The notes under the pieces are model-generated. The model had not been told where the DNA came from and ran no database searches. It was given only the letters and a program-made list of their open reading frames with translations. Below, piece after piece: positions 31,151 through 35,068 of a stretch of 64,000 bases of DNA; within the stretch, counting starts at the first letter, position 1, and each line of letters begins with the position of its first letter. Made by a program: the position numbers and the translations under genes. The DNA is taken from positions 13,508-77,507 of the forward strand of contig JACPKW010000001.1 of NCBI GenBank assembly GCA_016186825.1. Reading direction: 5' to 3'. Source of the DNA: Candidatus Giovannonibacteria bacterium. Its GTDB lineage: Bacteria; Patescibacteriota; Minisyncoccia; JACPKW01; UBA11713.

Positions 31151-31450
31151 CCTCTCTTTTGTCCCGTTCTGCTCGGTACCGCCGAGCCGGAGCCGCCATT
31201 TTAGATTAGCGGCCAAAATCTATTCAACTAATCAACTACTAACTAGTCAACTAATTGACCGGCCTATTAAGGAGTGGCGTTTAAATTTTACCGAAGCAAA
31301 ACTAAACGAAATTTATCCTTAAAAGGAGAAAATCCACGACCAGCTTCCGCTAGCCGTGCCTTGTTACGACTTCGTCCTTGTCACCGAGCTTACCTTCGTC
31401 CGTTAAAAAACGACCTTCGGGTACTCCCGGCTTCCCTGACGTGACGGGCG

Positions 31451-32289
31451 ATTATCTTCTAGAAACTTAGAATTGATGTTCCCACGTAGTGTGCGGATTT
31501 CCCGCGCTACGCGAGCTCTAATGCATTGATGCTTTTATTTTATAGAGCTTAGCTAACCCCTGCTTGTTAAGATGTTGGCCGTTTTTTATCCTCAACATCA
31601 GATCACAGAATATCTCAAAGTCTCTTTTCTTTGATTTAAGCTGCAACTGATGAGTTTTAAAAAACGGAATAATGACATCTTCAAGATCCTTTCTATTGGA
31701 TACTTCATAGCGATAACAATTCTGGTGATTCTTACGTGTATCTTTCTGAAAATACACCTCGCCGCAACCGAAAAATTTTTTTAGCCTAAAGAGAATTTCA
31801 GAGTCTCTCTCAATAAGCTTTAAATAAAATTTCGGTTCAGCTCTAACCCATCTTTTTACATTTTTTGTAAATTCAGGGTTTTTAATGTAGGCGGTAAAAC
31901 TACCCTCGCCATCAACTAGTCCAATAATATATTCGGCATTAAGCATATTTAGAGTGGATCCTTTCCGGTTCTAGCCGGTACTATGATCCAGCTGACTTCT
32001 GACGCTGCGTAAGTTTCATTATATCTTATCTTGCGACAAAATAGCAGCGTCAGATCTCCACAGGTCATTTTATTTTCTATTCCAAGCATCCGAATTGGCC
32101 TTATTATGATCTTCCCTGCCCTCACCGCCAATTGCAGGTCGAACTGCCATTTATATATCGGCTGCTTTTTGCTTCCAGATCCTTCGCTTGCCGCTTCACA
32201 GCGGCAAACTATCTTTCGGCTATGCTCTTTGACGAGAAGAGAAATGGATTTTAACCATTCAGAAAATAAAACTGCTGCGCGCTTTTATT
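31451..32289 (-). mobile_element. intron-like insertion 1 in the 16S gene (near E. coli position 1391) carrying a LAGLIDADG ORF
   Basis: The 16S sequence stops after ...CTTGTACTCAC and resumes CGCCCGTCACG 839 bp later. Conserved rRNA flanks are intact on both sides. Confidence 0.65.
31518..31946 (-). CDS. LAGLIDADG homing endonuclease (single-motif)
   Basis: 142 aa. The N-terminal IIGLVDGEGSF is the LAGLIDADG motif. Encoded inside the 16S insertion on the same strand as the rRNA. Confidence 0.75.
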   Translation of the reverse strand: MLNAEYIIGLVDGEGSFTAYIKNPEFTKNVKRWVRAEPKFYLKLIERDSEILFRLKKFFGCGEVYFQKDTRKNHQNCYRYEVSNRKDLEDVIIPFFKTHQLQLKSKKRDFEIFCDLMLRIKNGQHLNKQGLAKLYKIKASMH

Positions 32290-32896
32290 GTGAGTACAAG
32301 ACTCGAGAACGTATTCACCGCGGCATAGCTGATCCGCGATTACTAGCGATTCCAGCTTCATGAGGTCGAGTTTCAGACCTCAATCCGAACTGAGCTCACC
32401 TTTGATGAGATTGGCTCCGCCTTACGGCATCGCGACCCATTGTAGTGAGCATTGTAGCATGTGTGTAGCCCAGGGCATCAGAGGGTCATGCTGACCTGGC
32501 GTCATCCCCGCCTTCCTCCCCCTATACGGAGGCAGTCTCGTCTGACACTTATAACAGACGATAAGGGTTGCGTTCGTTACCCCACTTAAGGGAACAGCTC
32601 AAGCCACGAACTGACGACGGCCATGCAACACCTGTGTAAGCGTCCTTGTGAGACATTTTTTCTTTCGAAAAAATTTCGCTTACATTTCAAGCCCTGGTGA
32701 GGTTCTTCGTTTACCATCGAATTAAACCACATGCTCCACCGCTTGTGCGAGTCCCCGTCTATTCCTTTGAGTTTTAATCTTGCGATCGTACTTCCCAGGC
32801 GGCAGGCTTAACGCGTTAGCTTACGGCTCCCGAAGGGTCGATACTTCGGATGCCTAGCCTGCATCGTTTAGGGCGTGGACTACAAGGGTATCTACA

Positions 32897-33593
32897 AATT
32901 TGTTGCTAACAACAAATTTGAAATTTTCAATTTTACAATTTCCAATTTTCAAAATGTTGTAGGGCAAGACATTTCTGCTTGTCTCTCTGCATCGCTGCAG
33001 AGTTCAGACTATATCATACGAGCACTTTGAGAAGCGGACGTCGTTAGACATCCGGACTTCAAAGTGCTCGCCTCGGCGTATAGTCGTTGAGGGGAATTAG
33101 ACTGGGATAAAACGACTCACCTCATAAAGGTTTCTGCCAATAACTCGATCTCCGCCAGCTTCGATGTTCTTGATAAATTCAGCCAAATCCGCTTTCGCAA
33201 GATCGTCGGACTCCTGTTCGATGCATTCAACTATGCTGCGGTTCTTGTTTTCTATATCAAGTATAGCGAGATAGTTCATTTTCTACTCCTTTCTTAATTC
33301 TTCCCTGCTGGTTATCCGCACCAAAACATTTTTACTCTTGCAAGTAGTTTTGGATACACCGGACTTTCCAGCATATAGCTCCCGCCTCGGCTCACGCCTC
33401 GACGGGATTCTCAATTTTGCAGCCAACATGCGTTGGGCAAAATTGGAACAAGTTTTTTATCCTCGTCCGCCAGTTAGCGGATTCGAGGGGACTAGTTTTC
33501 CGCCGATACCCTCGGCGGCCACTGCACAGCAGTAAAATCTCCAATTTGAAAATTGAAAATTGTAAATTGAAAATTTCGCTGCCATGCAGCGGG
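32897..33593 (-). mobile_element. intron-like insertion 2 in the 16S gene (within the GGATTA|GATACCC block, near E. coli position 788)
   Basis: About 697 bp interrupt a universally conserved block. The insertion termini carry complementary AT-rich repeats (AAATTTGAAATTTTCAATTTTACAATTTCC at 32921-32950 and GAAAATTGAAAATTGTAAATTGAAAATTTC at 33549-33578) that could pair the intron ends. Confidence 0.55.
33097..33279 (-). CDS. small acidic ORF inside 16S insertion 2, preceded by a strong SD
   Basis: 60 aa. The minus-strand upstream sequence reads GAATTAAGAAAGGAGTAGAAA-ATG, so the SD AAAGGAG lies 6 nt from the start. No recognised motif. Confidence 0.35.
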   Translation of the reverse strand: MNYLAILDIENKNRSIVECIEQESDDLAKADLAEFIKNIEAGGDRVIGRNLYEVSRFIPV

Positions 33594-33920
33594 TTAATCC
33601 TTTTTGATCCCCACGCTTTCGTGTTTCAGGGTCAGGAATGCCCCAGCAAATTGCCTTCGCCTTTGGTGTTCCCCTAGATATCAACGGATTTCACCCCTAC
33701 ACCTAGAGTTCCATTTGCCTCTGGCACCCTCCGAGCTCGGCCGTTTCCCCGCCAGCTTCAGGGTTGAGCCCTGAAATTTAAACGGAGACTAACCGTGCCC
33801 CCTACACACCCTTTACGCCCAATAAATCCGGATAACGCTCGGGCTCCTCGTCTTACCGCGGCTGCTGGCACGAGGTTAGCAAGCCCTTATTCCTGCGGTA
33901 CCGTCAGAGTTAGAGCTGTG

Positions 33921-34148
33921 AAGAGACAAGTTTTTTTCCTTTCTACTTGCCTCGTATTTTCCTTATTGGATAAGGACTATTGAAAATATATTTGGGGTTG
34001 TCATTTTTGATTCTTATGAATCTCCCAGGGACTTCATCTGATGTTGCTTCAAATTCTTTTGTAACTCTTTCCCCGGTTTTTTGATTTACCCCGCGCACTA
34101 TATACAAATAGCGCTGATATTCTCTATTTAACATTTTAAATATCTCCT
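33921..34148 (-). other. insertion of about 228 nt in the loop of the 16S V3 hairpin (helix 17), intervening-sequence-like
   Basis: Complementary stems GAGTTAGAGCTGTG (33907-33920) and CACAGCTCCAACTC (34149-34162) flank about 228 nt where E. coli has about 35 nt. Confidence 0.5.
33943..34134 (-). CDS. small basic ORF (63 aa) inside the 16S V3 insertion, preceded by an SD
   Basis: MLNREYQRYLYIVRGVNQKTGERVTKEFEATSDEVPGRFIRIKNDNPKYIFNSPYPIRKIRGK. The upstream minus-strand sequence is GTGAGGAGATATTT-ATG (GGAG 7 nt from the start). The longer ORF-track version (to 34299) runs into conserved rRNA and is rejected. Confidence 0.35.
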   Translation of the reverse strand: MLNREYQRYLYIVRGVNQKTGERVTKEFEATSDEVPGRFIRIKNDNPKYIFNSPYPIRKIRGK

Positions 34149-35068
34149 CACAGCTCCAACTCTTCTTCTCGCAGAAAAGCGGTTTACGCTCCGAAGAGCT
34201 TCTTCCCGCACGCGGCGTCGCTCGATCAGGCTTTCGCCCATTGTCGAATGTTCTTGACTGCAGCCACCCGTAGGTGTATGGACCGTGTCGCAGTTCCATT
34301 GGTGGGGATCAAGCTCTCACTTCCCCTAGCCGTCATAGCCTTGGTAGGCCATTACCCTACCAACAAGCTGATAGCCCGCAGGCCTTTCCCAGAGCCTATC
34401 GCTAGATTTACTCGGCACCTTCCAAACTTCGTGTAATTCGCTCGACACAAAGTCTCGAAGGTGCCGAGACTATCGGGAATTAGCTAACCTTTCGGCTAGT
34501 TATGCCCGTCTCTGGGGTAAGTTCCTACGTGTTACTACCCCGTCTGCCACTGAACATCTAAATCCGTCGCATTGATATAATCTCAACTCCTTCAAAAGAT
34601 GTTCCGTTCGACTTGCATGCCTTATCCACGCCGCCAGCGTTCATCCTGAGCCAGGATCAAACTCTCTTTGAATTGCTCACGCATTGCGCGAGCAAATTTT
34701 GAACGGGACAAAAGAGAGTAGTTATAACTTTCTTTTGTCACAAACTTTTCACCCGCTTAAGTATTGTCTTAAACAATTCCTTGCGGGTTGTGTGTCCCGA
34801 TTTTGCTTCTGCAAAGCAGAAATGCAAAATCGAGGATCCCCGATTTTCATTTATGAAAATCGGGACATGTTTTTGATATTCTTTTTTCAACGTTCTGTCG
34901 ATCTGAATATTCTCTGTAAACAAACCCGCAACTGCCTTCACATAAAAACAGTTGCGGACTTGTTTATTTTTCAAATAAATTTTTAGGGCTGTTTACATAA
35001 GTTTTCGAATTAATTCTAAGTCCAATGTCCATTATATGGTTCCTGCAAAGCTTGTCAACCGGCCGATT

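Follow-up and report, generated by a model that had tools for sequence, protein, structure and literature searches.

A 16S rRNA gene assigned to Candidatus Giovannonibacteria with predicted group IIC and group I introns and a helix 17 insertion

Two described systems come closest to the element discussed here, a LAGLIDADG-encoding intron in the 16S ribosomal RNA (rRNA) gene of a 64-kb stretch (the window; 64,000 nucleotides of contig JACPKW010000001.1) assigned to Candidatus Giovannonibacteria. The first is 16IS9, at position 1400 of 16S genes in the Candidate Phyla Radiation (CPR), where 53 group II-like insertions are reported, 39 of the 53 with LAGLIDADG_1 and none with a reverse transcriptase (Tsurumaki et al., 2024, PMC11270868). 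The second is rns-1396, built on a IIC backbone: every member has a 5′ linker, domain IV encodes a single-motif endonuclease, and the intron-binding sites IBS1 and IBS3 are recognized (Liu et al., 2026, PMC13190283). This family is stated to be limited to four genera of Thiotrichaceae, giant sulfur bacteria (PMC13190283, 2026), and later papers, as they cite it, also attribute the Thiotrichaceae system to Salman et al. (2012, PNAS). CPR 16S genes additionally carry group I introns, at sites 16IS4-7 and 16IS10 (PMC11270868), and the same survey cites RNase III-processed intervening sequences in the 23S genes of Salmonella, Leptospira and Coxiella. Unlinked rRNA genes are common in several clades, Patescibacteria among them (Brewer et al., bioRxiv 10.1101/705046).

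Our analysis of sequence anatomy, homology, covariation and insertion boundaries points to a 16S gene that is its own transcription unit and contains three insertions: a group IIC intron with a LAGLIDADG gene (insertion or intron C), a group I intron (insertion or intron B), and a structured insertion in helix 17 (insertion A). We give this reading a probability of roughly 0.82. An initial annotation of the window had recognized the gene and two intron-like insertions. Both are real, and comparison with homologues places one in group II and the other in group I, but the total of two was too low, as a third insertion of ~243 nucleotides (nt) lies in helix 17. That insertion was absent from the initial annotation, as were a promoter-like site and a leader-trailer stem that bracket the gene. 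Coordinates of all features are collected in Table 1.

The 16S gene and its exons

The bacterial 16S model of Rfam, RF00177, matches the minus strand of the window from position 34672 with 1177 bits. Its alignment stops early, at 32243, because the covariance model is unable to bridge the 839-nt insertion C, and the gene as modeled is 920 nt too short. Direct reading past the insertion gives CGCCCGUCAC ... GUCGUAACAAGG ... GGAUUUUCUCCUUU. When the two candidate introns are taken out and the remainder is aligned to Escherichia coli rrs from RefSeq, the exon-only sequence is colinear with rrs end to end, from position 1 to 1542, at 68.8% identity. E. coli position 1542 falls on window position 31322, and canonical sequence is regained at both exon junctions (GGAUUAGAUACCC and GUACUCACCGCCCGUCAC). 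The model match and this colinearity identify a bacterial 16S rRNA, which sustains the gene that had been drawn at 31322-34675 and the expectation that its exons alone would align as a full 16S. The total length is 3.35 kb, and that of the precursor 3.5 kb.

An NCBI protein of 'Candidatus Giovannonibacteria bacterium' is a 100% match to the LAGLIDADG protein, and judged by sequence the host is a member of this group, in the Parcubacteria group of the Patescibacteria and the CPR. The description of the locus as an intron-bearing, unlinked 16S gene of the CPR kind was apt.

Since rRNA genes are frequently mis-assembled in metagenome bins, one might suspect that the locus joins intron-bearing fragments of other organisms, and in one related locus (L016) the 3′ half of a position-788 intron does abut sequence that is not rRNA. 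Several observations speak against such a chimera here. The exons are complete and colinear, and a perfect 18-nt complementarity links leader and trailer across 3.5 kb. An identical endonuclease gene was assembled independently from four runs (SRR12113401, SRR12113426, SRR12113428 and SRR12113432), and the same architecture is found in many independent contigs. We regard a chimeric origin as extremely improbable, and continue with the gene as a genuine one.

Three features of the exons deserve mention in their own right. The 3′ end (31322-31340) reads GGAUUUUCUCCUUU where E. coli has GGAUCACCUCCUUA, so that the anti-Shine-Dalgarno core is CUCCUU, not CCUCC. Two 14-nt deletions relative to E. 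coli, at positions 1134-1147 and 1466-1479, are consistent with the reduced rRNA helices described for CPR bacteria. Finally, position 1396 (window 32294) is a U; among the CPR 16S genes in loci L001-L144, 72 of 79 read GUACUCAC instead of the near-universal GUACACAC. This substitution is independent of intron presence, is matched by the exon-binding site of the group II intron, and falls within the site of primers 1391R/1392R. Genes of 3.35 kb defeat standard rRNA annotation, and this failure, together with U1396 in the primer site, would in part account for lineages that are missed or mis-annotated.

The intron between positions 1399 and 1400

Insertion C separates E. coli C1399 from C1400. 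The initial annotation had its 839-bp extent exactly right and its site, near position 1391, wrong. The boundaries are supported by 34 intron-less CPR 16S genes that had been fetched for another purpose, all with U1396, in which the sequence runs uninterrupted through ACTCAC/CGCCCG (GTACTCAC/CGCCCGTCA; a slash marks an insertion or splice point).

By comparative analysis, insertion C is a group II intron of subclass IIC. We draw the classification from homologues because the window itself is silent in Rfam at gathering thresholds, where no intron is found, and with RF00029. In a scan of one genome per species, 24 loci encode relatives, and 21 of them do so at the same 16S site; the 21 include a duplicate pair (L018/L019) and three bins labeled 'Gammaproteobacteria'. 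The gammaproteobacterial copies (L020, L021 and L023) align with the window intron throughout, and their endonucleases are 41-44% identical to that of the window.

The aligned sequences support the multi-domain fold of a group II intron. For the 5′ part, the fold predicted by RNAalifold has 84 pairs, of which 69 show compensatory changes; a basal helix closes domain I, and domains II and III follow. The stem of domain IV, CUCUAA (31949-31954) with UUAGAG (31516-31521), read from the sequence and the alignments, encloses the endonuclease open reading frame (ORF). Domain V has a CGC triad with an invariant G-U wobble, as seen in IIC introns, a 2-nt bulge and a GAAAU loop; across its 14 pairs, 99% of cells are paired and 7 pairs have changed on both sides. 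Domain VI consists of a well-supported inner stem of 5 bp and a basal stem of 2-3 bp. All 8 of its pairs have changed on both sides, although 12 of 22 sequences lack pair 49-69; position -3 is invariably A. For domains V and VI together, 94% of cells are paired and 15 of 22 pairs have changed on both sides, a covariation reached in 0 of 500 shuffles, and slid partners are only 36-48% paired.

Recognition of the 5′ exon can be traced in the same alignment. A hairpin loop of domain I, GGUGAG, contains the putative exon-binding site EBS1, GUGAG, which is complementary to CUCAC, the last five exon bases, and the EBS1-IBS1 pairing is compatible in 20 of 20 sequences, with five pairs formed in every CPR copy. 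One pair is U-A in the 17 CPR copies and A-U in the three gammaproteobacterial copies, where the exon reads ACACA and the loop UGUGU; a one-base shift in register accompanies this switch and matches a one-base shift of the insertion site. As the switch from U-A to A-U is a single evolutionary event, the covariation support for the pairing is modest.

Four points weigh against assigning insertion C to group II. The canonical 5′ end, GUGYG, is missing at the splice site, and GCGCN is found instead, behind the linker, a deviation that has been published as typical of the rns-1396 family (PMC13190283). RF00029, the model of group II domains V-VI, has no match in the window even at E 10. RF01998, the model of domains I-IV, scores 27.6 bits against a gathering score of 35, although four homologues score above it, at 37-42 bits. 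Lastly, domain V of the window copy has a C-A mismatch beside the bulge. Relative to the consensus, however, this domain differs by four compensatory pair changes and the one C-A, which argues for selection on the helix.

The 5′ linker is A-rich and variable: CPR copies have 7-9 nt, and the gammaproteobacterial copies as many as 26 nt. An alignment of 22 sequences reveals no conserved bulged A on the 3′ strand of domain VI; the sole candidate for a branch point (column 69, at -6) is an A in fewer than half of the sequences and in the window is a G paired with C. From the linker and the lack of a conserved branch A, we infer that the first splicing step is hydrolytic and does not form a lariat. 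In the mitochondrial rRNA introns of fungi, the same two traits have reportedly been connected with splicing by hydrolysis and without a lariat. In our model, the ribozyme of intron C would recognize the 5′ exon through the pairing of EBS1 with CUCAC, and a hydrolytic first step would be followed by exon ligation.

The same peculiarities could also be taken as signs of decay, in which case intron C would be a group II remnant that has lost self-splicing and needs host factors, or would deprive this 16S copy of its function. The sub-threshold Rfam scores, the degenerate 5′ consensus behind a linker, the missing branch A and the C-A mismatch would all fit, as would the fact that no reverse transcriptase or maturase is encoded. 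Throughout the family, however, introns have the linker and lack the branch A, and fungal analogues with the same two traits are said to splice in vitro. The helix of domain V is upheld in the window copy by its four compensatory changes, and the endonuclease ORF is intact and of full length, like those of more than 900 homologues. For the group II introns that giant sulfur bacteria have in their 16S genes, the CPR survey cites experimental characterization (PMC11270868). Nor is a second 16S copy visible in the 64-kb window, and CPR bacteria usually have only one (PMC11270868). We consider decay improbable and favor an intron that is predicted to splice.

The endonuclease gene, which the initial annotation had already identified as a 142-aa LAGLIDADG ORF, matches PF00961 (LAGLIDADG_1) with E 1.6e-14 and 55.1 bits against a cut-off of 23.1. 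Its single motif, IIGLVDGEG, occupies residues 7-15 and retains the acidic residue, and nearly all of its 936 database homologues likewise have 142 aa. Among solved structures, the window protein is closest to halves of I-PanMI, I-SmaMI and I-OnuI, enzymes of fungal mitochondria (E ~1e-27 to 1e-21), and it aligns with both halves of I-PanMI. A related CPR enzyme, I-ShaI, is active and works as a homodimer (PMC11270868). We expect the window enzyme to be a homodimer as well, because this is established for single-motif enzymes of the family and for I-ShaI. It would cut intron-less alleles at GTACTCAC/CGCCCGTCAC, and homing at the DNA level would thereby spread the intron.

One of the related loci differs at the 3′ end of the intron. 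In L005 (~4425-4730), CGCCCGTCA is preceded by domain V-like sequence twice, 227 nt apart, and the repeat may stem from a duplication that took in the 3′ end of the intron together with the 3′ exon.

The intron at position 788/789 and the helix 17 insertion

In pairwise alignments, the gene exceeds E. coli rrs by exactly 702 nt after position 788. The initial annotation was right about the position and slightly off in extent, with 697 bp at 32897-33593 where the true limits are 32895-33596. The splice sites read GGAU / U...UUUG / UAGAUACCC, which is the sole placement that restores GGAUUAGAUACCC under group I rules, with the exon ending in U and the intron in G.

Assignment of insertion B to group I again has to overcome a weak score in the window copy. 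At gathering thresholds it has no Rfam match, and RF00028 gives 32.2 bits (E 2.4e-6) where the gathering score is 50; the match (32985-33151) covers J6/7, P7, P3′, P8, J8/7, P7′ and P9, that is, the 3′ half of the core. The comparison with group I and group II models that had been proposed at the outset thus returns a sub-threshold match for each intron, besides the silent RF00029. A further point against the assignment is that P1 requires a guide ~100 nt from the splice site, pairing across an AT-rich clamp. Homologous introns, however, occupy the same site in L009 and L014, and a metagenome scan for the 3′ junction returned at least 120 stretches, from which at least 94 full-length introns of 275-1253 nt were extracted; the family is abundant in groundwater metagenomes. 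Among the matches listed, seven shorter homologues at the same site exceed the RF00028 gathering score, at 53-74.5 bits, so that group I membership of the window copy rests on homology. The smallest member (L043, 275 nt) has the standard order from P2 to P9. On this comparison insertion B is a group I intron, the RF00028 score of which is lowered by insertions.

The candidate internal guide, UAGUCC, is present in 94 of 95 family members among the matches listed. Its GUCC is predicted to pair with GGAU of the 5′ exon, forming a U-G wobble where splicing would occur, and its UA with the opening bases of the 3′ exon; the exon is invariant across the family. With a canonical P7/J8-7/P9 core, the intron would be excised by the guanosine-initiated two-step pathway.

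The complementary AT-rich repeats noted in the initial annotation exist as two 35-nt arms, which are paired in both the minimum free energy (MFE) and the centroid folds (z -10.2) and would clamp the ends of the intron. The clamp is specific to this copy. AT-rich runs of the GAAAAUUG type are common near the 3′ end in the family. We tried the clamp as a family trait and rejected it: in duplex folding of 80 family members against shuffles, with motif anchoring imperfect for some sequences, the window copy is an outlier (z -8.3). The AT-rich motif is found nowhere else in the window, and it is therefore not a dispersed repeat here.

Where relatives may carry an endonuclease, the window copy has a 60-aa ORF in the loop of P6. 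Its only database homologue is itself (hypothetical protein HYW53_00290, Ca. Giovannonibacteria), and it has no similarity to the ORFs of 94 related introns among the matches listed, eight of which carry ORFs of 242-280 aa that match LAGLIDADG_3 weakly. A near-perfect Shine-Dalgarno sequence, AAGGAG, complementary to CUCCUU at the 16S 3′ end, stands 7 nt before the ATG (33266-33295). ORFs that L009 and L014 have at the corresponding place of the intron bear no relation to it, and that of L014 likewise has a GGAGG. The 60-aa ORF is probably not a conserved gene, despite the AAGGAG before it.

Other loci of the scan show how varied this 16S block can be. Two position-788 introns appear to contain a tRNA gene, an unusual cargo for an rRNA intron: ARAGORN calls a tRNA-Glu(CTC) in the P2 region of the 541-nt intron of L113 (positions 136-210), and in the equivalent intron of L098 (2501-2569, minus strand) Rfam has a tRNA-like match of 49.2 bits. 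In L004 (2081-3058), a different group I intron with an ORF of ~240 aa lies five bases downstream, at position 793 (GGAUUAGAU / ... G / ACCC), so that several intron families target the same conserved block. In L016 (1-650), the 3′ half of a position-788 intron is preceded by non-16S sequence; this locus is either an assembly chimera or a rearranged gene.

Insertion A follows E. coli position 440, where Rfam finds 243 nt in helix 17 in place of the 6 of the model. It folds stably (MFE -84.4 kcal/mol, z -8.3) and is closed by a 21-nt stem with arms at 33906-33926 and 34143-34163 that are 90% complementary; like RNase III-type intervening sequences, it thus has a long closing duplex and sits at the tip of a helix that is variable. 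It belongs to no Rfam family, a scan by E-value gave noise only, and in a blastn comparison with 20 further CPR 16S genes expanded in helix 17, only flanking rRNA matched. About 20 of the 67 CPR 16S genes surveyed have 148-1166 extra nt in this helix, every sequence being different. A 63-codon ORF inside the insertion was rejected as a conserved gene, as it has no homologue and Pfam is silent. Two identities come into question for insertion A: as an expansion segment it would be retained, and as an RNase III-type intervening sequence it would be cut by RNase III at the closing stem.

These two fates can be extended to the other insertions, which yields two alternatives to splicing. In one, RNase III would excise the insertions without religation, leaving a fragmented mature 16S. 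CPR bacteria may hold insertions of this kind (PMC11270868); the stem, the variable helix tip and the absence of intron signatures favor this fate for insertion A, and the AT-rich duplex that joins the ends of intron B in the window copy could be read in the same way. B and C, however, lie in the 790 loop and in the decoding center at 1399/1400. These sequences, single-stranded or functional, are conserved universally, and a break there is unlikely to be tolerated. Their ribozyme cores are backed by covariation or by the Rfam matches of homologues, and the clamp of B is not kept across its family. For these reasons fragmentation is a serious contender for insertion A only, and as an account of the insertions in general we think it possible but unlikely.

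In the other alternative, insertion A, and conceivably B and C too, would be kept in the mature rRNA as an expansion segment. The variability of helix 17, expanded in so many of the CPR genes surveyed, and the compact, stable fold of insertion A agree with retention. For B and C, retention would put 700-840 nt into the 790 loop and the decoding center. Moreover, insertions in CPR rRNA are removed from transcripts (Brown et al., 2015, as summarized in PMC11270868). We hold retention, too, to be a tentative proposition that is unlikely overall. For B and C we prefer splicing, and thus infer that both introns are excised from the RNA of this locus.

The transcription unit and its counterparts

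The signals around the gene suggest a self-contained unit with its own promoter, processing stem and terminator hairpin. The promoter-like site, with 12 of 12 consensus matches the best of its region, closely follows trmD and precedes the 5′ end of the mature 16S by ~360 nt. An exact-match search found the perfect 18-bp leader-trailer stem, where the longest match in 200 shuffles is 13; duplex folding of the entire leader against the entire trailer was uninformative. Such a stem is the classical arrangement for release of pre-16S by RNase III. In our model, transcription would run from the promoter to the hairpin, and the duplex that brackets the 3.5-kb precursor would allow RNase III to free the pre-16S.

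The hairpin is the weakest of these signals. The initial annotation had described a perfect bidirectional terminator. The hairpin is indeed perfect, but bidirectional only in part: it is listed as a terminator for just the plus strand (tail CCTCTCTTTT), and its minus-strand tail, UUUGAC, is a poor U tract, which counts against its role in the 16S unit. With a T-rich tail on the plus-strand side alone, it is a better terminator for the tRNA-Ile transcript than for that of the 16S. The tRNA-Ile gene is convergent with the 16S gene, not divergent as first described, whereas tRNA-Ala(UGC) does lie 7 kb away. As the initial annotation also had it, no 23S gene is linked: neither 23S nor 5S has an Rfam match anywhere in the 64-kb window. 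Layout varies among related Parcubacteria contigs, since L011, L003 and L017 hold 16S, tRNAs and 23S together and others do not. To call the operon dismantled is a fair description, yet unlinked rRNA genes are common in Patescibacteria (10.1101/705046).

Table 1. Features of the 16S locus and its neighbors, in window coordinates.
Feature	Position	Strand	Basis or remark
16S rRNA gene	31322-34672	-	RF00177 and exon-only alignment
16S exons	33597-34672, 32290-32894, 31322-31450	-	alignment to E. coli rrs
Insertion C, predicted group IIC intron with LAGLIDADG gene	31451-32289 (839 nt)	-	boundaries, covariation, homologues
5′ linker of intron C, AAUAAAA (7 nt)	32283-32289	-	alignment of relatives
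Ribozyme domains I-III of intron C	31947-32282	-	RNAalifold; RF01998 match 31958-32044
EBS1, GUGAG	32121-32125	-	complementarity to the 5′ exon
LAGLIDADG homing endonuclease gene (142 aa)	31518-31946	-	PF00961
Domain V, 10+4 bp hairpin	31481-31515	-	alignment, covariation
Domain VI and 3′ tail AAU	31451-31477	-	alignment
Insertion B, predicted group I intron	32895-33596 (702 nt)	-	pairwise alignments, RF00028, homologues
5′ AT-rich arm of intron B (35 nt)	33542-33576	-	83% complementary to 32922-32956
Candidate internal guide, UAGUCC	33489-33494	-	conservation in the family
60-aa ORF in P6 loop of intron B	33097-33279	-	ORF list; no Pfam family
3′ AT-rich arm of intron B	32922-32956	-	pairs with 33542-33576
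11-bp terminal hairpin ending in the 3′-terminal G, after the 3′ arm	32895-32920	-	fold
Insertion A, structured extension at helix 17 tip	33907-34162 (~243 extra nt)	-	RF00177 alignment, fold
63-codon ORF inside insertion A	33943-34134	-	no homologue, no Pfam
37-nt helix extension after E. coli position 199	34416-34452	-	hairpin arms 34411-34434 and 34445-34468
Extension of ~14-37 nt near E. coli position 68-90	~34562-34604	-	Rfam and exon-only alignment
Promoter-like site, sigma-70 type, TTGACA-16 nt-TATAAT	35031-35058	-	consensus matches
Leader strand of leader-trailer stem, CUCUCUUUUGUCCCGUUC (18 nt)	34701-34718	-	100% complementary to 31152-31169
Trailer strand of leader-trailer stem	31152-31169	-	pairs with 34701-34718
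Terminator candidate, perfect 16-bp (16+16) hairpin	31116-31150	.	directly after trailer strand, 172 nt past 16S 3′ end
TrmD ORF	35069-35773		PF01746; upstream of 16S promoter-like site
Promoter-like site of DUF5679 gene, TTGACT-16-TATACT	31087-31114	-	sequence
DUF5679 zinc-ribbon gene (53 aa)	30857-31018	-	between tRNA-Ile and terminator hairpin
tRNA-Ile(GAT)	30774-30846	+	convergent with 16S gene
tRNA-Ala(TGC)	24225-24296	-	7 kb beyond

Set against the systems described before, the locus shares features with each of them. Its 16S gene stands apart from 23S, like other unlinked rRNA genes (10.1101/705046). Insertion A resembles the RNase III-processed intervening sequences in its long closing stem at the tip of a variable helix, in being lineage-specific and in having no ribozyme signature; it differs in lying in 16S helix 17 and not in 23S helices 25 or 45, and in encoding no 23S_rRNA_IVP protein. 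Intron B shares with known group I introns of 16S and other small-subunit (SSU) genes the U at the splice site, the terminal G, the P7/J8-7 core and the GGAUUAGAUACCC block. Its site, SSU position 788/789, is a group I intron site in eukaryotic nuclear rDNA as well. Its relatives have optional LAGLIDADG cargo where the window copy has the orphan ORF. It differs further in an insertion in the P3 strand and in the 35-nt AT-rich duplex, the latter being absent from other family members.

Group IIB1 introns in fungal mitochondrial rRNA are reported to have LAGLIDADG ORFs, 5′-terminal insertions and no branch point. They are like intron C in their rRNA host, in the use of a DNA-level homing protein instead of a reverse transcriptase, in the extra nucleotides before the 5′ consensus, in a non-canonical domain VI, and in an endonuclease of the same protein lineage (LHE2 in PMC13190283). 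They differ in belonging to IIB1 and not IIC, in their mostly double-motif endonucleases, and in their organelle hosts and insertion sites.

From 16IS9, intron C has no essential difference: site, Pfam family, single-domain endonuclease, lack of a reverse transcriptase and host clade are the same. The earlier survey classified 16IS9 by partial Rfam matches only, whereas the alignments used here provide the six-domain fold, the CGC triad, the EBS1-IBS1 pairing, the linker and the missing branch A. With rns-1396, intron C has in common the IIC backbone, the 5′-terminal linker, the single-motif endonuclease in domain IV and recognition of IBS1. The insertion point lies one base further 3′ in the window (1399/1400 against 1398/1399), and EBS1 is GUGAG instead of the UGUGU of rns-1396, in keeping with U1396 of the CPR exon.

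A more ambitious reading would combine these observations. On this reading, rns-1396 would be primarily a CPR element, with its EBS retuned to the CPR-specific U1396 and with obligatory hydrolytic splicing, the last on account of the linker and the missing branch A. The 788 intron would be a variant with its ends held by the 35-nt AT-rich duplex, and the ORF led by a Shine-Dalgarno sequence would be genuine non-endonuclease cargo. As a whole we find this combination doubtful, and adhere to the plainer account of an autonomous 16S unit with two introns and a helix 17 insertion. As such, the locus offers a fully bracketed example, with promoter, stem, three classes of insertion, stem and terminator, and could serve as a template for assays of splicing and homing in CPR bacteria.

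Every component has a published precedent in the clade: intron-rich rRNA genes, the position-1400 element, group I introns, insertions in variable regions and unlinked rRNA genes. The layout, unusual for bacteria at large, is well documented in the CPR lineage, and the locus leaves current understanding unchanged. What it adds is a link between two descriptions. The sequence comparison indicates that CPR 16IS9 and Thiotrichaceae rns-1396 are evidently one group II/LAGLIDADG family, of which the CPR copies are clearly a larger population than those of Thiotrichaceae, an abundance already implied by the CPR survey (PMC11270868).

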